Below are positions 50,086 to 63,399 of a stretch of DNA of 64,000 bases, piece after piece. Source of the DNA: Flavobacteriales bacterium (lineage in GTDB: Bacteria; Bacteroidota; Bacteroidia; Flavobacteriales_F; PHOS-HE28). Below the pieces are notes generated by a model that was not told where the DNA came from, did no database searches, and saw only the letters and a list, made by a program, of their open reading frames with translations. Each line of letters begins with the position of its first letter. Positions within the stretch are counted from its first letter, which is position 1. Location: assembly GCA_016704485.1 (NCBI GenBank), contig JADJAA010000002.1, positions 945,892-1,009,891 of the forward strand, in the 5' to 3' direction. A program made the translations under genes and the position numbers.

Positions 50086-50669
50086 ATGAACCAAAAAAGT
50101 GCTCTTTGTGTGGTGGTCCAGTTATTAACAAATACGGCCAGGTTCGGGGTAAGCAACGGTACCGTTGCCGCACTTGTGGTAAGCAATTTTTAGGCGGCCA
50201 AACAAAGCAGCCCGAAGAACTATGGTTTGAGTATCAAGCTGGCAAACAGACTTACAGGCAGTTGGCTCTCAAGTATGGTTGTTCTATTCGGACCATACAG
50301 CGGACGTTGGACAAATACACAGGCACTGAAGCCAAGGCTGTTCTGCCATCTTCAGCCGTGGTTTTAATGGATACGACCTACTTCGGGAGAACCTTCGGTG
50401 TAATGGTGTTCAGGGATGCAACTACAGGCACAGTCCTGTATAGGAAATACGTAAAACATGAGACCAACCAGCTTTATGCGGATGGTCTGAAATTCCTTCG
50501 TGGACAAGGCGTGGAGATAAGCGCCGTTGTTTGTGATGGCCGACGAGGCCTGTTGCAACTCTGCAGAGGAATCCCGGTGCAAATGTGCCAATTTCATCAA
50601 GTAGCGATCATTACCCGCTATCTCACTAGAAGGAATCTCAAAAATAAGCATTGCCTAAGTTATCTATGA
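50086..50669 (+). pseudogene. IS1595-like transposase, N-terminal part (zinc ribbon, HTH, first two catalytic Asp), interrupted by the IS5-family insertion
   Basis: CSLCGGP...(17)...CRTCGKQF zinc ribbon. An in-frame ATG at 50086 is one nt out of register across an A6 run; A7 would give MNQKKCSLCGG. DDE aspartates lie in VLMDTTYF and VVCDGRRG. Reading stops inside the IS5 left end. Confidence 0.6.
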
Positions 50670-51524
50670 ACACTGGGCTTTGATCAACTTTTTAATGTTC
50701 CAGTTGATCTTCTTCTTTGGCGCAATGTACTTCGCTAAGAAAAGCGATGGACATCAGCGACAAGCAATGGGAAGTGTTGGAAAAACCGCTTACAAGTATT
50801 TTTCATAAGAGCGAAACACGTGGCAGGCCCAGACAAGATCCACGTGCGGTGCTTAACGGGATCTTGTGGATATGCCGGACCGGTGCACCATGGGCAGATC
50901 TACCTGGCAGATACCCGCCATACCAGACTTGCCATCGGTACCACAAACACTGGTGCAAGAGCGGTTCTTGGGATAAACTGCTGCATGCTCTTGCATCGGA
51001 TCCACGCGATCGAGGGAAGATCGACATTACCGAATGCTTTATCGATGGCACCTTCGCAAGTGCCAAAAAGGGGGCTTGTGTTGGACCTACTAAGAAAGGG
51101 AAAGGCACCAAGATCATGGCAGTCACAGACGCTGTTGGTATTCCTCTCACCGTACGGGCCTTTAGCGCCAGCACCCATGAAGTAAAGCTAGCCGATAGGA
51201 CGATCCGTTCGTGTGCCATAAAGCCCAAACGTGCGATCGCCGACAGGGCGTACGACAGTGACAAACTAAGACGCACATTGAAGAAACGCGGAATCCAACT
51301 GGTATGTCCGCACAGGAGTAACAGAAAACGACAAGTGCATCAAGATGGACGGGAATTACGGCGCTACAAACGCCGCTGGAAGGTCGAAAGGTTGTTCGCG
51401 TGGTTGTTTAACTCGCGCCGTACATTCGTTCGGTATGAATACCATGCAGACCTCTTCTTAGGCATGGTGCAGTTGGCTTGCGTAATGATAATTCTCAAAA
51501 GTTATTTTTGAGATGGCTTCTAGA
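50627..51524. mobile_element. IS5-family insertion sequence, copy B (898 bp, intact)
   Basis: Same ends as copy A. Single uninterrupted 264-aa transposase ORF. Confidence 0.85.
50717..51511 (+). CDS. IS5-family DDE transposase (intact)
   Basis: 264 aa, N-terminal HTH (WEVLEKPL..RGRPR). Transposase_DDE_IS5 pattern. Identical to the copy A reading apart from three small differences. Confidence 0.85.
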   Translation: MAQCTSLRKAMDISDKQWEVLEKPLTSIFHKSETRGRPRQDPRAVLNGILWICRTGAPWADLPGRYPPYQTCHRYHKHWCKSGSWDKLLHALASDPRDRGKIDITECFIDGTFASAKKGACVGPTKKGKGTKIMAVTDAVGIPLTVRAFSASTHEVKLADRTIRSCAIKPKRAIADRAYDSDKLRRTLKKRGIQLVCPHRSNRKRQVHQDGRELRRYKRRWKVERLFAWLFNSRRTFVRYEYHADLFLGMVQLACVMIILKSYF

Positions 51525-51920
51525 AAGCCCAAGTTGCCAGCAGCCATTGAGCTGCGCCAATTGACACAGATGCTGAAGAAGACCGATAAGGAAAGCTTCA
51601 CTGGGGGTCTACAACTATGGCATACCAAATGGAAGGCCTTCCTCGCTGAACGAACTGTGGAATCAACCACCGGCAAGTCACGTTATACGCACGGTCGCCT
51701 GCGGAGCGCACACCGGAGCCTATCGTGCAATCTGCCTTGGTTGTTCACTTGGTACGACTATCCTGAACTGGATATTCCCAACACCACCAATGCAATAGAT
51801 GGCTACTTCGCAGACCTGAAGAACAAGCTTCGCAATCACAATGGCCTCTCCTTGACTCGGAAACAAAAATTTATCGATGAGTTTTTGAAGGCATGCGGAC
51901 CTCGCGATGGGAACGGTTGA
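51513..51920 (+). pseudogene. IS1595-like transposase, C-terminal part (resumes immediately after the IS5 right end)
   Basis: Continues the frame of 50106..50669. Contains the TNAIDGYF..LKNKL region, equivalent to the IS1/IS1595 C-terminal catalytic segment. Confidence 0.5.
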
Positions 51921-52866: not shown

Positions 52867-53268
52867 TCAAGGGCACACCGCTTCTTCCAGAACCTTGTCA
52901 ACGGCCAGGTATTCCTCTGCATCGTCTCCTTCTGCGGTTTCGCCCATTACGGTATGCGCTTCAAGCTTTACTACCACGGAGCCGCCATGCTTTACTGCAA
53001 GAGCGATCAACCGATCCTGCGCACTACCAGGAATTACCGGCTTGTTGAAAGCTGACCCACACGGAACAAAACTGTGCGCACCATCGCTATAGGAGTAGGT
53101 GCCAATTACCGTACTGTCGTCCACTGCATTCGTGGGAGTTGTTTCATCAGGAATTTGCTCCGTGGAAGAAGTAGGTTGCTCCTTGAACTCCGGCACAGAT
53201 CCCGCATCAGGGTTGGTACAACCGGAATACATAATTCCAAGAACCACGATCGCCAATACATTTTTCAT
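52867..53268 (-). CDS. Hypothetical lipoprotein
   Basis: Signal peptide with lipobox (MYSGC), then a 115-aa soluble domain. Confidence 0.5.
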   Translation of the reverse strand: MKNVLAIVVLGIMYSGCTNPDAGSVPEFKEQPTSSTEQIPDETTPTNAVDDSTVIGTYSYSDGAHSFVPCGSAFNKPVIPGSAQDRLIALAVKHGGSVVVKLEAHTVMGETAEGDDAEEYLAVDKVLEEAVCP

Positions 53269-53354: not shown

Positions 53355-54023
53355 TTGTCGCTTCGAATGATCCCTGTTCTATCCGCATTCTATTTCGGCA
53401 CGATCGATCACTATCGTGTGTTGGCAAAGCATCCGAAGGTGATCATTGACCTCGGCGAGCATTACGAACGGCAGAGTTATCGCAATCGCACAACGGTCAT
53501 CGGCCCCAATGGAACGAATGACCTTGTAGTCCCCATTGCGCGCAGAAGCGGAGAGAAAATGCCTATGCGCGAAGTAGGCCTCAGTTATGCTGAAACGTGG
53601 CCCCGGCAACACCTGCATGCGATCCGCAGTGCTTATGGAAAAACGCCATGGTTCATCCATTTCGAAGATGATCTCAATGATCTATTGAGCAAGCGCTATG
53701 ACCGACTTGTGGAGTTGGATCTAGCAACGATGCGCCTTGCGATGAAGTGGTTGGGGTTGGGAACGGAATTGGTTCTGAGTGAAACCTACGTAGAGGTGAA
53801 TGGTGAATGGGTAGGAAGCGATCTTGCGCGAAAGACGACCAACAACCAATTCGTGGATCTCCGCACTGCTCTGCATCCCAAACAACCACTGCCCGATCCG
53901 CTTTTGACTCCGCCAACCTACACTCAGGTATTTGCGGATAGGCATGGGTTCATTCCGGGGTTGAGCATTATCGATCTCGTGTGCAATTGCGGGCGTGATG
54001 CACGACGAGTCGTATTGGGTTGA
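53355..54023 (+). CDS. WbqC-like family protein
   Basis: 222 aa. N-terminal ..SAFYFGTI and C-terminal SIIDLVCNCG resemble the WbqC-like family (PF08889) pattern. Confidence 0.45.
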   Translation: MSLRMIPVLSAFYFGTIDHYRVLAKHPKVIIDLGEHYERQSYRNRTTVIGPNGTNDLVVPIARRSGEKMPMREVGLSYAETWPRQHLHAIRSAYGKTPWFIHFEDDLNDLLSKRYDRLVELDLATMRLAMKWLGLGTELVLSETYVEVNGEWVGSDLARKTTNNQFVDLRTALHPKQPLPDPLLTPPTYTQVFADRHGFIPGLSIIDLVCNCGRDARRVVLG

Positions 54024-54167
54024 TCTGTGGGGTGTTAGACAATACTTTCATGTAGGCCGAAGAAAACTTCCAGCAAGATCATATCAAAGAATAATAATCA
54101 TTATTGATGGCCCCTTGGGCATAGTTACCAAGCAACACTGTATTTTTCTGCCCAATTATTACAAGGA

Positions 54168-55121
54168 ATGCGCATCATTTCATTGTTGGCCCTGATCATA
54201 GCGAACCTACTATCTGTGCAAGCACAAACACAGAGATCCACGGCTGATGCTGTAAAATGGGCACGTGCATTAGAATTGGACAGCCTAGGTAAGACCGCCC
54301 AAGCAGTGAAGCTCTATACCGATCTTACCAACGAACCTGCATGGGCGTACAAAGCTTATATGGCTCGGAGTGGGGCCTATTTCGTAGTTCTGCATGATTA
54401 TCAGGAAGCATTCATGGATCTTGCAAAAGCCATGGAGTTGGAACCGGATAGCATTGCTCCATATTTGAACCGTAGTGCATGCTACATCACAGCCAAAATG
54501 CCGGATCGTGCACTCTCCGATCTCGACGAAGCGCTGGTCCGTGCCAGAGACCGCGAAGACAGCATTTCCGTTTTCGTGAACCAGGCCAGTGCACTATTCA
54601 CCGTCCGGAAGTTCGATGTGGCATTGACCGCCTTGGACAAAGCACTCTTGCTGGACAGCACATCGATGGCAGTGCTATTGAACAAAGCAACAGCATTGGA
54701 TGAATTGGGAAAACAAGAGGAGGCATATACCATTACACTAAAGCTCCACGAATTATTCCCCGTTGATGTCGCCATCATGAATAACTTAGGCTATCAGTCC
54801 AGTAACATGAAGAATTTTGACGAAGCAAGGTCCTGGTATGAAAAAGCACTGAAGGTTGACCCCAAGGACGCCTATATTCTCAGCAACCTGAGCTATATTC
54901 AATTGCAACAAGGCGCATTGAACGATGCACTGGACAGTGTTGAACGCTCAATACGATCCAACCCGAACAACAGTTATGCGTATCGCAATGCCGGTTTGAT
55001 ATGGCAAGCCAAGGACAACAAGGCCAAAGCATGTGATGCCTTCGAAAAGGCATTATCGCTTGGTTTCACCACGGAGTATGGTCCTGAAGTGGCCGACCTG
55101 AGAAAGAACTATTGCAAATGA
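54168..55121 (+). CDS. Secreted TPR-repeat protein
   Basis: Signal peptide (..SVQAQ), then about 7 TPR repeats. Its stop overlaps the ATG of the next gene. Confidence 0.7.
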   Translation: MRIISLLALIIANLLSVQAQTQRSTADAVKWARALELDSLGKTAQAVKLYTDLTNEPAWAYKAYMARSGAYFVVLHDYQEAFMDLAKAMELEPDSIAPYLNRSACYITAKMPDRALSDLDEALVRARDREDSISVFVNQASALFTVRKFDVALTALDKALLLDSTSMAVLLNKATALDELGKQEEAYTITLKLHELFPVDVAIMNNLGYQSSNMKNFDEARSWYEKALKVDPKDAYILSNLSYIQLQQGALNDALDSVERSIRSNPNNSYAYRNAGLIWQAKDNKAKACDAFEKALSLGFTTEYGPEVADLRKNYCK

Positions 55122-58100
55122 ACTCGATCCACATGATCTACCCGTTACAGGAACAAAAGCGACCAACTCGTTCATCACTTCGATCCACCCTCATCCGTCA
55201 CCTAGGTCTTTTCGCGCTTATTGCAATGGGTTCCACCATCACGCAGGCTCAAATGAAGATGGACATGGGTCATGGTAGTGCCATGCTGGATCAAGCGCGC
55301 GAACTAGTGCGGAGCGATAATAAAGCTGAAGCGTTGAAGTTATTGGGTACAGTGCATCCGAACGATTCACTGTATGACAGAGCATTGCAAACACGTTTCT
55401 ATCTTCTCGTTGACGATAAGAAATTCGAAGAGGCGAATACGCTGAGCATATTGGGCATGCGGGCCAAGGGTAAACTCAGGAATGAGTTCATGGTGATGCA
55501 CACCGCTATTCTTGTGGATCTGGAAAAATGGGAGGACGCATTGGCTGCAGCTGACTCGGCAATTGTAGCGTTACCCGGACTGTATCGTCCACGACACTTG
55601 AGATCTCTTTCGCTGGCGGAACTCGGTAGAAAGAAAGAAGCACTGGAACAATCCATGGACAATGCGAAGCGATTCCCGTACAGGCGCGAAGCACACGTTC
55701 GGTTGGGAACGTTGGCCTTTAACGAAGGACTTGTCTCACAAGCCGCGATGGCATACGCTATGGCCCAAGTAGTTCGGTATGACGATGACTTCGCAAACAC
55801 CTTACTCGGCCAGAACGACGGTGCACTAGGGGCTACCATTGAAGCAAAGTCGGAAGGATACGACCTCAGCGTTACGGGCGATGACCTTTCTGAAGAAGAC
55901 TTGTTGATCCGTAGCAAGGTGGCCATGGACAAAGACTACAAGTGCAAGCCGGATCTTACGTACCCCATATGTCGGCAGTCTCATTTACTTTTCACCTCCA
56001 TCCATGAAAAGAAAGGTGAATTGAAGGGGTTCTACAGCGAGTTCTACGGCCCGTTGATCAATGAGATCATGGACCAGGGCTTATTCGAAGGGTTCATCTA
56101 TCACTGCTTACTCTCAAGCACCGATAAAGGGGTCAAGTCCCTTGCATCGAAGAACAAGAGCAAAGTAGAAGCCTTCCGTGCAAAAATGGGAGATGTGATG
56201 CAAAAGCATTACATCATGTTCCCAGAGGAAGAAGGCGGAGCGAACGTGATGCACATCTATAACAATGATGGCGATATGGTGGGTTATGGTCCGGGGGATC
56301 CAATTAACTCGGCCAGCTCGGGCCAGTGGAATTATTATTACAGCAATGGGCCAAAGCGATCATGGGGTAATTTGGATAACGATGGTAAACGCACTGGAAC
56401 TTGGTCCGACCGCTATGAATCCGGCATTATGTCCAGCAGGGCAGAATACAAAGCCGGCGAGATCGAAGGACTTGCTCTGTTCTATCATGAGACAGGTGCA
56501 CTCTCGGATAGCATTCATGTTGTGGATGGCAAACGCAATGGCCAAGTGTGTATGTATTACGAAATGGGAGGCCTTCGCAACTGCAAAACAACAGTAGCTG
56601 GCGCATGGACCGGCCCTGTTACCGAGTACTACCGGAATGGCGCACCGGAGTGGACATATGCCCTGAAGGAAGGGATCACGGAAGGCACCGTGAAGCAACA
56701 GTACAATACGGGCGGAACGGCGTTCATAGGTGAATATATCAACGACCTGCGCAGCGGTACTCACAACGAAATGTACCCTGATGGTGCCAAGAAAAGTTCA
56801 TACAGCTATACGGAAGGAAAAGGCAACGGTGCATACACCAAATGGTCTGCGGACGGTATGCTCTCCGAAGAAGGTACGCTCAAGAACAACGTGATCATTG
56901 GCGAACGGAAGACCTACGACCAATGGGGAACGTTGGACGTACTCATGCGTTTCGATGAACAAGGACGCGCCCAGGGAACACGCGTAGAGAACAATGACGA
57001 AGGCAACCCCTTCGTTGAAATGGAATACAACAAGGATCTGCTTATCCGGTATTCCTATCGCGATCGAACGGGTAAGGTCATCGGAGAAGGAACACGTTCC
57101 AAAGGCAGGTTCGATCTGAAAGGATATAACATGGACAGCGGGCTTCGCGTGGAAGGAGTGTATTTGGATGAAGGCCAGAAAGATGGCAAATGGAAGTACT
57201 ACCAAGCCGATGGCACGTTGGAGAATGAAGAGAATTTCAAGAACGGAGAACCGGATGGAAAGCAACTCTTCTATTCAGAAGATGGATCGAATTTCGGCTT
57301 CGACGAGAACTACTCGCGGAATGATATTACGTACACCGCATTCGAGCGCTACTACCGCGATGGCAAAATGCTCTACGAAGGACAGATCAAAGGCGACAAC
57401 AATGACGGCGCCTATCGTCGATACTATCCGGATGGCACATTGGACCAGGACCTCTATTACGTAGCTGGCCGGTTCCACGGCTGGCAGGTGTATTATGATG
57501 TGGACGGCAAGAAGATCTACGCAACGCGTTATGAGAACGGGACCATGATGGAACAGATCAATTATGACCGGGATGGCAACGCTTACGAAACCGTGGTCGT
57601 AACGCCCGGTGCATTCGAGTTCGTCCAGCATCATTACAACGGTGCAGTTCGTTCCCGTTGGGCTGTGATGAACGCTATGTTGAACGGTAAGGCAACATGG
57701 TATTATCCGGATGGCTCCGTGGAAGTGGAAGGCGAGTTCCTGAATGGGGACCGTCATGGCAAATGGACCGGGTACCACACGAATGGCAAAAAGAGCTATG
57801 AACGAGAGTACGTAATGGGCAATAGCATTGGTCAGTATACCCAATGGTTCGCCAACGGTACGATGCAAAGCGAAACACCTTACGTGGCCGGATATGTTAG
57901 TGGGTTGGCCAAAGAATACCATGATAACGGCAAGATCTCGTTCCAGCGCAATTACGGCTATGGCAATTATCACGGCGATCATTCAAGTTACACCCTTAAT
58001 GGCGAGCCACAAATGGTGCGCTTCTATCACAAAGGGCGTTTGTACGCCTATGGTTCCCCCACCGCTGATGGTACCGTAAAGGACACCATACATGTAAGCA

Positions 58101-58483
58101 GCGGTATTGCGAACTGTACCTCCACGTTCCCGGATGGCACGAAGGCGCGTCAGATCAATTTCCGGAACGGAGAGATCGATGGAAAGTTCATTGAGTATCA
58201 CGCCAACGGAAAGGTCATGGAATCGGCGGAATACCAAGTTGGTCAAATTGTTGGCGAGCATGAAGAATTCTACGCCGATGGCACTCCAAAACAGACCACA
58301 CCCTACGTTGCTGGTTTGAAACACGGGGAGCAGATCGCTTACTGGAACACTGGAAAGGTGAAAGAAAAACGTAACTTCAAGTTCGGAGAAGAACAGGGTC
58401 TTCGAACATTCCATGACCAAACAGGAAAACTACTTGCAACTTTCGACGTTCGGGACAATGACGTTGTCGAGATCATCAAATAA
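55118..58483 (+). CDS. Large secreted protein: N-terminal TPR-like region plus more than 20 MORN-variant (YwqK-like) repeats
   Basis: Signal peptide. A repeated 23-25-aa unit, pattern G.W..Y..NG....EG.Y.NG...G, throughout residues 380-1120. Confidence 0.65.
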   Translation: MNSIHMIYPLQEQKRPTRSSLRSTLIRHLGLFALIAMGSTITQAQMKMDMGHGSAMLDQARELVRSDNKAEALKLLGTVHPNDSLYDRALQTRFYLLVDDKKFEEANTLSILGMRAKGKLRNEFMVMHTAILVDLEKWEDALAAADSAIVALPGLYRPRHLRSLSLAELGRKKEALEQSMDNAKRFPYRREAHVRLGTLAFNEGLVSQAAMAYAMAQVVRYDDDFANTLLGQNDGALGATIEAKSEGYDLSVTGDDLSEEDLLIRSKVAMDKDYKCKPDLTYPICRQSHLLFTSIHEKKGELKGFYSEFYGPLINEIMDQGLFEGFIYHCLLSSTDKGVKSLASKNKSKVEAFRAKMGDVMQKHYIMFPEEEGGANVMHIYNNDGDMVGYGPGDPINSASSGQWNYYYSNGPKRSWGNLDNDGKRTGTWSDRYESGIMSSRAEYKAGEIEGLALFYHETGALSDSIHVVDGKRNGQVCMYYEMGGLRNCKTTVAGAWTGPVTEYYRNGAPEWTYALKEGITEGTVKQQYNTGGTAFIGEYINDLRSGTHNEMYPDGAKKSSYSYTEGKGNGAYTKWSADGMLSEEGTLKNNVIIGERKTYDQWGTLDVLMRFDEQGRAQGTRVENNDEGNPFVEMEYNKDLLIRYSYRDRTGKVIGEGTRSKGRFDLKGYNMDSGLRVEGVYLDEGQKDGKWKYYQADGTLENEENFKNGEPDGKQLFYSEDGSNFGFDENYSRNDITYTAFERYYRDGKMLYEGQIKGDNNDGAYRRYYPDGTLDQDLYYVAGRFHGWQVYYDVDGKKIYATRYENGTMMEQINYDRDGNAYETVVVTPGAFEFVQHHYNGAVRSRWAVMNAMLNGKATWYYPDGSVEVEGEFLNGDRHGKWTGYHTNGKKSYEREYVMGNSIGQYTQWFANGTMQSETPYVAGYVSGLAKEYHDNGKISFQRNYGYGNYHGDHSSYTLNGEPQMVRFYHKGRLYAYGSPTADGTVKDTIHVSSGIANCTSTFPDGTKARQINFRNGEIDGKFIEYHANGKVMESAEYQVGQIVGEHEEFYADGTPKQTTPYVAGLKHGEQIAYWNTGKVKEKRNFKFGEEQGLRTFHDQTGKLLATFDVRDNDVVEIIK

Positions 58484-58487
58484 CCGA

Positions 58488-60395
58488 ATGCGGGCCGCGT
58501 TGTATTTGATCGCATTGTTGTTCTGTGGGCAAGCATTCGGACAGAACATGTCCGAGCAGCTTGTGCTGCTCCGGCGTACGTACCAGGATCAATCGTCCGT
58601 TTACCTTCGGAACAACACTACGTACCACATTGTGCGAACTGAGAAAGGCATTGTTTCCACGCGTGAGATCGAAAATGACCGTATGTTATTGAAAGATATC
58701 GTGGGGGACGTACAGGAAGAGCGCGTGTATTACAGTGACCTAATGCCACTGAAGGAGATCGAAGCCTATACCCTCATACCGAAGGGCAATGGCTCCAAAC
58801 GGATAAAGATCGGTGCTGTGGAACACCGTGATCAGCGCAGCAACAGCATCTTCCACGACGATTCGCGCATAGCCTATTTTACAATGCCATCCTTGGCTTC
58901 CGGAGCAGTGGCGCATTTACGTTACGTGGTTGCGTTCCCGGATGCCCGCTTCTCCACCGGCCACTATTTCGCCAGTGAGTTTCCTGTGGAAGAAAGCATT
59001 CTTACCGTGATCAGTGACGCGGACATAGACGTTGACGTGCGCACCTTCCATATGCCGGATGGCAGCTATACACGGTCAGTATCCACCGAGAAAGGCAAAA
59101 CCGTACAACGGTACACCATGCGCAATGTTCCGCCCATGAAGTTCGCTAGTGATGCACCTTCATTCAGCTATTACACGCCCCATGCTCAATTGATCGTGAA
59201 CACTGAGAAAGTTGAAAGCACGGACCGAGTGGACCAGCTCTATGGATGGCTGTACAGTTATGTAGGGCAATGTTCAGATCCGGCCGATGCTTCCATAACC
59301 GCACTTACGGATTCGTTAACGGCGAACATACTGGTCCCCCAGGAAAAAGCATCGGTGATCTACCGTTGGGTGCAGGACCACATCCGCTACATTGCATTCG
59401 AGGATGGCCTCAATGGTCTCATTCCAGCACCTGCCGAAGAGGTTTCACGTGTTCGATATGGTGATTGCAAAGGTATGAGCAACGTGCTGCAGACAATGCT
59501 TCGTGCTGCTGGACTTGATGCCCATCTGGCATGGATCGGCACGCGGGACAGACCTTATACGTTCAATGAACTACCCGCTGCCGGAAGTAGCGACCATATG
59601 ATCGTGGCCTTGTACTTGGCGGACACCACCCTCTTTCTGGATGGCACTGCGAATGTGAACGCGTTCGGTTTTCCCAGTGGATTCACTCAAGGTAAAGAAG
59701 CGCTGATCGCCATGGACAGCGCGACGTACAACATCAGCACCGTACCGGTTATGCCCGCTGCGGCCAGCGTGCTGCGCGATGACGTTCGGCTGAAATTCGT
59801 AGGGAACGAGTTGGTCGGCACCGGCAGGATCACATTGACCGGATATGATCGGCACAACCTAACGCATTATTTACGCGCCGTGCAACCCAACAAAGTGAAC
59901 GACGTACTGCGCAGCGTGTTGATGAAAGGCTCCAATAAATTCCAACTGGACAGCACGCACGTGGAAGGTCTGAATGATCGAGAAGCACCGCTCAGCATTA
60001 CCTACACCTTCAGATTACCGGACCACATGCACCGCAATGGCGACCGTGTGTATTTGCCCTTAACGCTAAGCGACCCTTGGAAAGACCTTCGGTTTGCGGA
60101 AGAACGCGTCCTACCCTTGGAATTCCCCTACGAGTATGAACGCCATTACACCGTGACATTGGATCTTCCGGAAGGAGCACAATGGGATGGCGCCTCTTCA
60201 GAACTGAAAATGGACATCAATGCCGCCAGCTACAGCATTATGACCAATGGCGATCAACGCACGATAACCACCAACGCTGACTTCGTTGTTAACCGTTTGA
60301 TCATGGATGAAGAACTCAATGATTGGCGGGACATGAACAAATCGCTCCTGAAGGACTTGGGCCGTACCGTAGTAATAGACCTACCCAGCGAATGA
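58488..60395 (+). CDS. Secreted transglutaminase-like (DUF3857/DUF3858-type) protein
   Basis: Signal peptide MRAALYLIALLFCGQAFGQ. Central VRYGDCKGMSNVLQTMLRAAGLDAHLAW matches the transglutaminase-like Cys core. ATG starts 5 nt after the upstream stop. Confidence 0.55.
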   Translation: MRAALYLIALLFCGQAFGQNMSEQLVLLRRTYQDQSSVYLRNNTTYHIVRTEKGIVSTREIENDRMLLKDIVGDVQEERVYYSDLMPLKEIEAYTLIPKGNGSKRIKIGAVEHRDQRSNSIFHDDSRIAYFTMPSLASGAVAHLRYVVAFPDARFSTGHYFASEFPVEESILTVISDADIDVDVRTFHMPDGSYTRSVSTEKGKTVQRYTMRNVPPMKFASDAPSFSYYTPHAQLIVNTEKVESTDRVDQLYGWLYSYVGQCSDPADASITALTDSLTANILVPQEKASVIYRWVQDHIRYIAFEDGLNGLIPAPAEEVSRVRYGDCKGMSNVLQTMLRAAGLDAHLAWIGTRDRPYTFNELPAAGSSDHMIVALYLADTTLFLDGTANVNAFGFPSGFTQGKEALIAMDSATYNISTVPVMPAAASVLRDDVRLKFVGNELVGTGRITLTGYDRHNLTHYLRAVQPNKVNDVLRSVLMKGSNKFQLDSTHVEGLNDREAPLSITYTFRLPDHMHRNGDRVYLPLTLSDPWKDLRFAEERVLPLEFPYEYERHYTVTLDLPEGAQWDGASSELKMDINAASYSIMTNGDQRTITTNADFVVNRLIMDEELNDWRDMNKSLLKDLGRTVVIDLPSE

Positions 60396-62371
60396 ATCTT
60401 TCCAAACTCTTGATCGGTGCCGTTATCGGTGCCAACACAATGCTTCCTTCACCGGCCAATGCCCAGCATGACCATCTGAAGAACTACGATTGGGACCCCG
60501 CGCCAACCCTGCCGGACACCACCGGCTTCGGGTCCTCCAACGAAGTGATCCTGTTGCGCAACAACATCCAACAGTTCGAGGATCAAGGAGAACTGATCTA
60601 CTTCTATGATGTGTTCCATTACCAGAAATACTTGGGTGATGATGCGGCTGTGGACCAGAATAAGACCTTGGACATCAATACAGGATCCATCTTCGACATG
60701 TACACCTTGAAAGCAAGGTCCATAGCACCGGACGGTACGGTTACCGAACTCCCCAAAAGCGCCTTTTTAGAGCGTGCGGATGACAACGAAAAAGGCAAAG
60801 GCACCTATTTCGCGTTCGAAGGGTTGCGACCGGGCAGCGTGGTTGAATACCTGATGTTCTCCAAACAGACCTGCGAATACAGGGGTGCTGTTACGCGACT
60901 CCAGTTCAGTTTGCCCATCAAAAAGGAAACCTATGAAATGCTGGTGCCCGATTCCTGGCGTTACCAATTCAAAGGATATAACGGCCTTCCCGAACCTACC
61001 GCGGACTCAACCCTTGCCGGCCATCTGCTGCATAAATTGGAGTTAACGGATGTCGCGGCATTGGAAAGTGAAAGTAACGCGGACACCGAAAAATACCGGA
61101 TGTATCTAGTGCATAAGCTGGATGCTATCCCCAGTCTGAACGCACTGCACATCAGCGACTACAATGGCGCAACCAAGATCTACCACGATGCGCTTTACCC
61201 GGATCTCGGTGCCAAGACCAAGAAGGAACTCGCTGGTCTGGTCAAAAAGATAGGAATAGGGTTCGCGCGTGATGAAGCGGATCGTTTGCGAACCATTGAC
61301 CGGTATATACACGGCAACTTCCAGTATGCAGAGAGCGGCGCTGCGGAGCTTTCGGACCTGGACGCGATCATGAAGACCAGAACGTGTAATGAATTCGGGA
61401 TGCAGCGACTCTACGCCAACGTTTTTCGTGAGGCCGGGATCGAACATCAAGTGGTGCTTACGAACGATCGTACCCTAACACCCTTCGATCCGGAATTCGA
61501 ATCCCGGAATTACCTGCAGAACGTGGTCTTCTACTTTCCAGGACCGGATAAATACCTCGACCCAACGGAATTCGGTCTGGGCCTTGGCTACCTGGCGCCA
61601 GAATACATGGGCAACCACGGTCTGTTCATCAAGAACAAAGAATTGGGTGGCGCCTTTGTTGGCATCGGCAAAGTGAGCTTCATCCCCGACCTTCCAGCGG
61701 AAGACACGCGGCACGACCTGTTGATCACTATCAATCCTAGTGTTGATGCCACCGAAGCTGATGTTGTCGTGAAGAACGAGTTAACAGGTTACTACGCGCG
61801 CTACATCCAGGAATTCTATTCACTCATGAATGAAGAGCAGCAAAAGGACATTCTTCAAGGGCACATGGGGCATCTGACCGAGGGGGCCATCAAACAAGAC
61901 CTTCAAGTTGAAAACGCCAAAGCGGATCAGTTCGGTATGAAGCCCTTCACCATCAACGCCAAAGTGACCACCAATAAATTCACCAACCAAGCCGGGAATG
62001 AAGTGCTGCTGCGTGTAGGTGAACTCATTGGCCCGCAGATGGAACTCTACGCTGAAAAAGAACGCAAGCTACCGAGCGACTCCCCCTTCAACCGGTATTA
62101 TGACCGTAAGATCATTGTAGAATTACCCGATGGCTGGACCTGTGCGGACCTATCACCGATGGAGGTCCATAAGGTGATGGAGATCGACGGCAAGCTCGAA
62201 GCCGAGTTCCGATCCAGTGCAACCCAGAATGATGGCATCATTACGATCGAGATCGTGGAGTACTACCGCACCACGCACGTACCGGTGGAATATTACGAGG
62301 CCTATCGCGGGGTGATCAATGGTGCCGCTGATTTCAATAAGCGCAACTTGCTGCTGAAGCCTGCAGGTTAG
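60392..62371 (+). CDS. Secreted transglutaminase-like (DUF3857-type) paralog
   Basis: Signal peptide. Candidate Cys core RTCNEFGMQRLYANVFREAGIEHQVV. ATG overlaps the upstream stop (ATGA). Confidence 0.55.
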   Translation: MNLSKLLIGAVIGANTMLPSPANAQHDHLKNYDWDPAPTLPDTTGFGSSNEVILLRNNIQQFEDQGELIYFYDVFHYQKYLGDDAAVDQNKTLDINTGSIFDMYTLKARSIAPDGTVTELPKSAFLERADDNEKGKGTYFAFEGLRPGSVVEYLMFSKQTCEYRGAVTRLQFSLPIKKETYEMLVPDSWRYQFKGYNGLPEPTADSTLAGHLLHKLELTDVAALESESNADTEKYRMYLVHKLDAIPSLNALHISDYNGATKIYHDALYPDLGAKTKKELAGLVKKIGIGFARDEADRLRTIDRYIHGNFQYAESGAAELSDLDAIMKTRTCNEFGMQRLYANVFREAGIEHQVVLTNDRTLTPFDPEFESRNYLQNVVFYFPGPDKYLDPTEFGLGLGYLAPEYMGNHGLFIKNKELGGAFVGIGKVSFIPDLPAEDTRHDLLITINPSVDATEADVVVKNELTGYYARYIQEFYSLMNEEQQKDILQGHMGHLTEGAIKQDLQVENAKADQFGMKPFTINAKVTTNKFTNQAGNEVLLRVGELIGPQMELYAEKERKLPSDSPFNRYYDRKIIVELPDGWTCADLSPMEVHKVMEIDGKLEAEFRSSATQNDGIITIEIVEYYRTTHVPVEYYEAYRGVINGAADFNKRNLLLKPAG

Positions 62372-62568: not shown

Positions 62569-63399
62569 ATGTTCAACTTCAAATTCTTTCCTGCACTTTT
62601 ATTGATCGGTTCTTCTGTTCAAATGAACGCGCAAGTTGCGGATGCCGGACCTGACCAAGAACTCTGTCTAGATCATACCACCTTACAGGCAAATGCGCTG
62701 ATGCCGGATGTTACCGGCTATTGGACCTTGTTGAGCGGTAATGTAACGATCGCGGATGATTCAGATCCGACGAGTCAGCTAACCAACATCTATGTAGGGG
62801 CAAACACGCTTTCATGGACGATCATCAATGGTACAGATACTACAACCGATGAAGTAAGCATAATTCGATATGAATTTGATCCGGCTATCGCAGATGCAGG
62901 GTCGGACCAGACCATTTTTACCCCCCTATCAACAGCTGTAATGCAAGCCGCAACTCCATGGTTCCCACAAGTCTGTTCATGGACCGTTGTTTCCGGAACC
63001 GGGATCATAACCAATGTGAATGACCCGCAGACCAGTGTGAGTTCACTGGGCGTTGGAGAAAATATTTTCCAATGGACTTGTGATGATGGTGAGTGCAGTG
63101 TACCGGGCAATTTAGACCAAGTTACGATCTGGGTAGAAACGGCCATGTCGGTAAGTACTATTGAGTTTTCACAACCCACATCAATTTGGTATGATCAAAC
63201 TACAGGTCTGTTGCAAGTTAACAGTGACGTTGGTATTGATGACCTAACGCTTTTCGATGGATCGGGAAGACGCATTCAACTGCCAGACCAAACGAACGGA
63301 AGGCCAATGAACATTGGGAGTCTTCCTTCTGGCACCTATGTGGTGATCGCGAATATCGATGGCGCTTTACAAACCCAGCGTTTCATAGTAAGCCGCTGA
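62569..63399 (+). CDS. T9SS-sorted protein with two PKD-like repeats
   Basis: Signal peptide. Two ~85-aa repeats, each starting ADAG(P/S)DQ. C-terminal T9SS sorting domain (LPSGTYVVIANIDGALQTQRFIVSR). Confidence 0.6.
   Translation: MFNFKFFPALLLIGSSVQMNAQVADAGPDQELCLDHTTLQANALMPDVTGYWTLLSGNVTIADDSDPTSQLTNIYVGANTLSWTIINGTDTTTDEVSIIRYEFDPAIADAGSDQTIFTPLSTAVMQAATPWFPQVCSWTVVSGTGIITNVNDPQTSVSSLGVGENIFQWTCDDGECSVPGNLDQVTIWVETAMSVSTIEFSQPTSIWYDQTTGLLQVNSDVGIDDLTLFDGSGRRIQLPDQTNGRPMNIGSLPSGTYVVIANIDGALQTQRFIVSR

Follow-up and report, generated by a model that had tools for sequence, protein, structure and literature searches.

A conserved Bacteroidota gene cassette with a predicted transglutaminase-fold enzyme, its triad-less paralog and a TPR-MORN repeat protein

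Four adjacent genes, here called g1 to g4, lie within a 64,000-nucleotide stretch of DNA (the window) from a Flavobacteriales bacterium (GenBank assembly GCA_016704485.1, contig JADJAA010000002.1, positions 945,892 to 1,009,891). Three of them, g2, g3 and g4, form a unit that is conserved across Bacteroidota, with the pair g3–g4 as its core. The product of g3 is a probable transglutaminase-fold cysteine enzyme, that of g4 is predicted to be a catalytically dead, full-length paralog of g3, and that of g2 has a TPR domain followed by a long array of MORN_2 repeats. On balance, we think it probable that these genes constitute a co-inherited envelope module found Bacteroidota-wide, in which an active g3 is coupled to its dead paralog, usually together with the fixed-length scaffold g2 and, in this clade, with the additional g1.

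To compare the genes with their relatives, one genome per GTDB species was scanned with the motif [RG]YGDCK[GD]M, which yielded at least 593 confirmed relatives of g3. The best 80 loci of these, all from other species, were analysed and contain 76 g3, 65 g4 and 54 g2 orthologs. A preliminary description of the locus, made from the sequence alone, had named four families to be searched for with hidden Markov models (HMMs). In the Pfam scan, DUF3857 (PF12969, cut-off 24.6 bits) is found in both g3 (43.8 bits) and g4 (35.5 bits), Transglut_core (PF01841) in g3 (36.5 bits, cut-off 23) and MORN_2 (PF07661) in g2 (115.9 bits, gathering cut-off 29.6), but DUF3858 (PF12970) matches neither g3 nor g4 at E ≤ 0.01, and Transglut_core does not match g4 at the same threshold. 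The NCBIfam scan gave no family for g3 or g4.

The AlphaFold2 (AF2) model of g3, built from 60 sequences, has high scores (pLDDT 92.2, pTM 0.88) and consists of three domains, the central one with a papain/transglutaminase (TGase)-like core fold (Table 1). Cys327 opens a helix, and His370 and Asp385 lie on or next to adjacent strands. Each of these residues is invariant in 76 of 76 orthologs. The Cys-His-Asp triad looked for in both downstream proteins is therefore present in g3, by conservation and by its placement in the model, but not in g4, as described below. Searching PDB sequences by phmmer with the single sequences of g3 and g4 returned nothing useful; profile searches reached a single entry, 3KD4. 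Structural comparison of the g3 model with 3KD4 gave a score of 29.5, with 472 of 505 residues of 3KD4 aligned at 14% identity over the whole architecture. The scores against other proteins are 11.0 for LapG, 10.6 for 3ISR, 10.5 for PNGase, 10.4 for S. pyogenes TglA, 9.2 for PeiW, approximately 9 for TG2/TG3, 8.0 for TgpA and 6–7 for M1 aminopeptidases (N-domain). Because the alignment covers 472 of the 505 residues, it must include most of the C-terminal part of 3KD4. A DUF3858-like domain is probably present in the g3 model but too diverged for the HMM.

3KD4 (BDI_1141, annotated as ‘putative protease’, Parabacteroides distasonis) is the structural-genomics representative of the DUF3857/Transglut_core/DUF3858 architecture. 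It is shorter than g3 (506 aa), and the YGDCKG of g3 (residues 323–330) corresponds to YGTPLE in 3KD4. Since the nucleophile is missing, 3KD4 is, judging from its sequence, probably a pseudoenzyme too. No functional study of it was found in the literature.

The g4 family is related to g3 along its length. Comparison of the two families by hhalign gave a probability of 99.9% (E 7e-34) over 585 columns at 13% identity. At the columns aligned with Cys327, His370 and Asp385, g4 carries Glu334, Val378 and Asp390, and in its family these positions are, respectively, variable (E/K/D/N), Y/F/V and mostly Ala. The Cys/His/Asp combination occurs in 0 of the 65 g4 orthologs, even when a few residues of slack are allowed around the aligned columns. 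Because the triad is lost in all 65, we classify g4 as a predicted pseudoenzyme. Thus, of the two transglutaminase-like paralogs proposed earlier, both are supported by fold and homology, but only g3 is a putative enzyme. What g4 conserves most strongly are two motifs of its C-terminal domain, GELIGPQxExY and VINAAADFNK. The family has many members. A search of 1.84 billion cluster representatives gives 5597 matches at E ≤ 1e-3, of which 814 reach E ≤ 1e-30, and at least 147 of the best 150 matches are near full length, at approximately 650 aa.

The genes are tightly packed. As had been described, the region comprises four co-directional open reading frames (ORFs), which make it 99.95% coding. 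The longest ORF has 1131 codons, whereas in 200 shuffles the longest ORF averaged 155 codons and never exceeded 281. Reading the letters directly, we find the reported ATGA overlaps at g1/g2 (55118–55121) and g3/g4 (60392–60395), whereas the gap before g3 is 4 nt and not 5 nt: the TAA of g2 ends at 58483 and the ATG of g3 starts at 58488. The length of 1123 aa given earlier for g2 is obtained from an upstream TTG; from the ATG it is 1121 aa. Identical products of all four genes are also encoded in the metagenome-assembled genomes (MAGs) GCA_963852075.1 and GCA_016708985.1 (both Flavobacteriales bacterium), and several metagenome contigs likewise hold g1–g4 with identical products.

This arrangement is not specific to the present genome, which had been considered as an objection to a functional unit; both order and tightness are kept in the relatives. 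Of the 70 loci with enough sequence, 67 have a g4 gene directly after g3 in the same orientation. Directly upstream of g3 stands a g2-type gene of approximately 1100 aa in 52 of 67 loci by script, or about 53 after manual correction for locus L076; in another locus, L085, the g2 gene lies approximately 200 nt upstream of g3. The loci come from records labelled Flavobacteriales, Cryomorpha, Cytophagales/Cyclobacteriaceae, Chitinophagaceae (Chitinophagales), Roseivirga, many cultured Hymenobacter, Mangrovivirga and others. In the isolate Halocola ammonii, where the gene calls are independent of ours, a TPR and MORN_2 protein (1089 aa) is followed by a DUF3857 and TGase protein (651 aa), a DUF3857 protein (654 aa, with a 4-nt overlap) and then a 315-aa TPR protein. 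Around the cassette, no other gene family is conserved across the sampled range; synteny of the flanks is at genus level only.

The four-gene order proposed in the preliminary description thus holds across orders for g2-g3-g4 but not for g1. A g1-type TPR gene adjoins the cassette in 8 of the 80 loci, either upstream or downstream, and g1 is a clade-limited, movable accessory. It matches TPR_2 (E 3.2e-26) and many other TPR families in the Pfam scan. We considered whether g1 is a duplicate of the TPR domain of g2; there is no significant similarity between them, and we rejected this reading.

The persistence of the arrangement also bears on the simplest alternative, that the genes are packed tightly yet functionally independent. 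Some g3–g4 pairs have no g2 beside them and g1 shifts position, as expected for mere neighbours, but the genes keep their order, orientation and near-zero spacing even where protein identity has fallen to approximately 25–30%, and the flanking genes all differ. We therefore regard functional independence as very improbable. One MAG, JBEEOW01, contains two g3–g4 pairs, one with a g2-type gene and one without (loci L030 and L065), indicating that paralogous copies of the g3–g4 pair exist.

The third member of the unit, g2, was modelled by AF2 with a pLDDT of 84.5 and a pTM of 0.69; the N-terminus, with the signal peptide, has low confidence. The TPR assignment holds by HMM or fold, and the helices continue past the TPR domain up to residue 365, as a helical linker to the repeat region. 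An HMM score above the gathering cut-off together with tandem beta-hairpin units place this region in MORN_2. An iterated custom repeat HMM identifies 25 units, and Gly pairs that are positionally conserved across the 54 orthologs give approximately 29, in agreement with the more than 20 MORN-like repeats noted earlier. The length of g2 stays near 1100 aa throughout the Bacteroidota loci sampled. g2 also gave a partial match to the NCBIfam adhesin model NF033566 (90.8 bits, under the cut-off of 250).

The repeat itself, a beta-hairpin of 22–24 aa, is the same as in known MORN_2 proteins, including Bacillus subtilis YwqK, Fusobacterium MORN2 and the Leptospira LIC20035 adhesin family. The Fusobacterium MORN2 proteins belong to the MORN_2 ‘MORN repeat variant’ group (PMC4222103). 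What g2 adds to these proteins is the TPR domain, the fixed array of approximately 29 units, export, and synteny with g3–g4. Homologs of g2 (P0156, P0160 and P0164; approximately 1100 aa, exported) are publicly named ‘toxin-antitoxin system YwqK family antitoxin’ (NCBI, JGI), a label that is probably an over-annotation from the MORN_2 repeat match. It does not fit g2, because the protein has 1121 aa, is exported and has no toxin gene adjacent; YwqK-type immunity proteins are small, cytoplasmic and encoded beside an LXG or deaminase toxin.

This label, and the fact that transglutaminase- and papain-fold domains are among known effectors, raise the question whether the locus is an inter-bacterial or polymorphic-toxin module, as the preliminary description had suggested, with g3 as the effector and the MORN protein as immunity factor. 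Foldseek also finds local similarity between the g2 repeats and MORN1, OspA and the sheets of YD/Rhs proteins (E approximately 1e-17 for Rhs/YD). Against the Rhs/teneurin shells, however, TM-scores of g2 are 0.07–0.13, and the closed beta-cocoon, RHS/YD HMM matches and C-terminal toxin of Rhs/YD-repeat shells are absent from g2. No type VI or type IX secretion system (T6SS, T9SS) signal and no PADLOC match was found for g2–g4, nor any toxin domain, small immunity-like gene or linkage to a secretion system. The proteins have constant lengths across orders with no variable C-termini, and they are co-inherited with correlated divergence. We consider a toxin module the least probable of the explanations examined, with hardly any credibility left.

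The cassette is, most likely, exported to the periplasm. The N-termini of g1–g4 all contain a hydrophobic stretch with A|Q or G|Q at its end, from which, together with a cleavage site like that of signal peptidase I (SPI), signal peptides were judged; in g1 the signal peptide reads MRIISLLALIIANLLSVQA, followed by Q after the cleavage site. The A-Q pair at the cleavage site is conserved in the g2, g3 and g4 families. Such ends fit the Q-rule of Bacteroidetes (PMC5837995). Scans with Pfam and NCBIfam detected no T9SS C-terminal sorting domain (TIGR04183/PF18962) in g1–g4, and no lipobox Cys is conserved in the g2–g4 families. Given the SPI signals, and with neither a T9SS domain nor, in g2–g4, a conserved lipobox, we suggest that the four proteins leave the cytoplasm by Sec and SPI, with the periplasm as their default location. 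The earlier description of four secreted proteins is supported in that all four carry signal peptides, but secretion to the outside was an overstatement. DUF3857 and DUF3858 proteins have been found in Tannerella forsythia vesicle proteomes.

If g3 and g4 were instead exposed on the surface or released, they could trim external peptides or glycopeptides for uptake, in the manner of PNGase or a peptidase. We consider such a role in nutrient scavenging or surface remodelling unlikely. Uptake genes, whether SusC/SusD, TonB-dependent transporters or others, are not conserved in the neighbourhood, g2–g4 have neither the lipobox nor the T9SS domain for surface display, and a dead paralog with a TPR-MORN scaffold would be unusual in a catabolic locus.

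Among characterized proteins, LapG of the BTLCP group (PDB 4FGO; PMC3032545) is a single domain of approximately 180–220 aa under the control of LapD and cyclic di-GMP. g3 differs from it in its additional N- and C-terminal domains, its dead paralog partner and the lack of a LapD-like neighbour. By analogy with LapG, g2 could be a large adhesin built of repeats, or a retention protein, that is released or activated when g3, as a periplasmic protease, cleaves it. The observations speak against this. The Pfam scan reported no Peptidase_C93/BTLCP match, and neither a LapD-type receptor, type I secretion genes, a type I-secreted adhesin nor other conserved neighbours are found at the locus. g2 has an ordinary Sec signal, a fixed length and positionally conserved repeats, whereas RTX-type adhesins are variable, and about one fifth of g3–g4 pairs have no g2 next to them to be cleaved. 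We thus judge LapG-like release of g2 to be quite unlikely, slightly more so than a scavenging role.

PNGase and the eukaryotic TGase-fold pseudoenzymes (Rad4/XPC, protein 4.2) differ from g3 and g4 in accessory domains, compartment and organisms, and there is no sign of glycan-related chemistry at the g3 locus. TgpA of Pseudomonas aeruginosa resides in the inner membrane, has one TGase domain and, unlike g3, comes with neither a dead paralog nor a MORN scaffold. This domain is periplasmic, and TgpA is important for viability (PMC3507681; PDB 6G4H).

Taken together, the triad, the fold and the compartment suggest that g3 is a thiol enzyme of the periplasm and acts on the amide bonds of proteins. 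For the co-inherited envelope module that we favor, we propose the following mechanism. With His370 and Asp385 activating it, Cys327 of g3 would attack a protein of the envelope at a peptide, isopeptide or side-chain amide bond and form a thioester. The thioester could be resolved by water, in which case g3 would be a protease or amidase like LapG or PNGase, or by an amine, resulting in transamidation and possible cross-linking. The same core is used by a protease in LapG, an amidase in PNGase, an isopeptidase in PeiW and transamidases in the transglutaminases. g4 would act as a non-catalytic partner that binds substrate or regulates g3. TPR and MORN surfaces are typical protein-interaction scaffolds; those of g2, and of g1 where present, may recruit or position the substrate or the complex, so that the proteins would associate physically. 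The constant length of g2 across orders could reflect a role as spacer or ruler in the periplasm.

Several points weigh against the envelope module as we propose it. In the relatives, the median gaps are 1.5 nt between g2 and g3 (n=54) and 6 nt between g3 and g4 (n=71), but start codons were chosen heuristically in these measurements, which biases them to short gaps. The pairwise identity matrices of g2, g3 and g4 correlate (r 0.89–0.93), which fits inheritance as a unit, although shared phylogeny alone would give the same result. Approximately 20% of g3–g4 pairs have no adjacent g2, indicating that the scaffold is not obligatory, and g3 also occurs by itself in a few cases. 3KD4, the only relative with a solved structure, has no catalytic Cys itself, and no active member of the three-domain architecture has been studied. 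Finally, the proteins may be exposed at the surface by an unrecognised route, as their location is deduced from sequence heuristics.

A more far-reaching version of the proposal is that g2-g3-g4 is a phylum-wide periplasmic protein-editing machine, with g3 guided by its dead paralog and by the TPR-MORN ribbon of approximately 29 hairpins, and that it performs an envelope-biogenesis step without a described counterpart in Proteobacteria. Proteins of the outer membrane, or proteins associated with the cell wall, might for example be attached covalently, cross-linked or matured by cleavage. We put this forward tentatively, as an idea that is more doubtful than plausible.

The sequence families of all the proteins are already known, as are the public labels DUF3857, transglutaminase domain and YwqK-like. 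What was not found described is the cassette of enzyme, pseudoenzyme and scaffold, the systematic loss of the triad in g4 and the fixed-length TPR-MORN partner. In agreement with the earlier remark that this is not a described system, our literature search returned no description of the cassette: in the library searched, DUF3857 and DUF3858 are mentioned only incidentally, in two papers, and the MORN_2/YwqK literature returned consists of Fusobacterium, Bacillus and eukaryotic work that does not deal with the cassette. A paper on ‘two novel tandem genes’ in Flavobacterium spreading is unrelated; the genes encode a polysaccharide export protein and a Wzz-motif lipopolysaccharide biosynthesis protein. 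The Bacteroidota envelope departs from the Escherichia coli model in many respects, among them T9SS, the Q-rule, lipoproteins at the surface and O-glycosylation, and many conserved exported proteins of this phylum are still ‘DUFs’. With the present analysis, four uninformative annotations (DUF3857, ‘transglutaminase domain’, ‘YwqK antitoxin’ and TPR) become one testable unit with named catalytic residues. If the cassette does process envelope proteins, it would be a new enzyme-pseudoenzyme system in periplasmic proteostasis; otherwise it is an ordinary conserved hypothetical operon. It contradicts nothing in current understanding.

Table 1. Position and properties of the cassette genes, their domains and key residues, and of the downstream gene g5. 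Nucleotide positions are those of the window; AF2, from the AlphaFold2 model.
Feature	Nucleotides	Strand	Residues	Description
g1	54168-55121	+	317 aa	exported TPR protein, accessory cassette member
g2	55118-58483	+	1121 aa from ATG (1123 aa from upstream TTG)	TPR and MORN_2 protein, putative scaffold
g2 signal peptide			1-45	long, ending TQA before Q
g2 TPR domain	55274-55831	+	53-238	about 12 paired helices (AF2)
g2 MORN_2 region	56246-58474	+	377-1119	about 60 beta-strands (AF2); about 25-29 hairpin repeats of 24 aa
g3	58488-60395	+	635 aa	exported three-domain transglutaminase-fold cysteine enzyme (predicted)
g3 DUF3857 domain			37-238	beta-sandwich (AF2)
g3 TGase core			247-420	AF2
g3 C-terminal domain			428-631	mixed (AF2)
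g3 Cys327	59466-59468	+	327	TGC; motif RYGDCK; N-terminus of helix 327-340
g3 His370	59595-59597	+	370	CAT; motif (D/N)HMI; on strand 368-376
g3 Asp385	59640-59642	+	385	GAT; motif FLDxT; just after strand 381-384
g4	60392-62371	+	659 aa	exported full-length g3 paralog without catalytic triad
g5 (PKD/T9SS gene)	62569-63399			197 nt downstream of g4; K319L-like PKD domain; TIGR04183 28.3 bits, cut-off 23

At the g2/g3 junction, a 6-bp GC-rich inverted repeat (AATGCGGGCCGCGTT, 58487–58501) overlaps the start codon of g3 and could affect translational coupling of the two genes. An ENA contig of 3367 bp (P0002) encodes a 1053-aa predicted protein with MORN_2, DUF3857 and Transglut_core; it is 100% identical to g3 over the aligned part, which covers 69% of g3. 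This is most likely a read-through from g2 into g3 across the 4-nt gap, caused by a sequencing or assembly error, and no true fusion. A sigma-70 promoter scan of the region, a type of scan unsuited to Bacteroidota promoters, gave fewer promoter-like sites than shuffled sequences, and terminator-like sites show no enrichment over shuffles. The exact motif TAnnTTTG does not occur upstream of g1 or within the operon; the only near match is TATTTTTC at 54141.

The T9SS PKD protein encoded by g5 had been counted as part of the same block, but the separation from g4 and its restriction to the closest relatives argue otherwise. A paralog of 37% identity lies approximately 3.3 kb further on in the source genome (17364–18179 of locus L001, from GCA_963852075.1), and neither of the two PKD/T9SS genes is syntenic with the cassette beyond the closest relatives. 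On the other side, a WbqC-family gene (53355–54023) with the same orientation as g1 precedes it at a distance of 144 nt, an arrangement that only the closest relatives share. Further upstream, on the minus strand, an ORF of 133 aa (52867–53268) starts with MKNVLAIVVLGIMYSGC, which resembles a lipoprotein signal, and has no family match. The segment 50106–51920 is probably a nested insertion sequence (IS): an IS5-family transposase gene (DUF4096 and DDE_Tnp_1, 50717–51511) is flanked by ORFs that resemble the two halves of a different transposase, the N-terminal one (50106–50669) and the C-terminal one (51513–51920). This IS block is present in GCA_963852075.1 and absent from the sister MAG GCA_016708985.1 (locus L002), in which a 208-aa OMP_b-brl_2 gene is called in its place.

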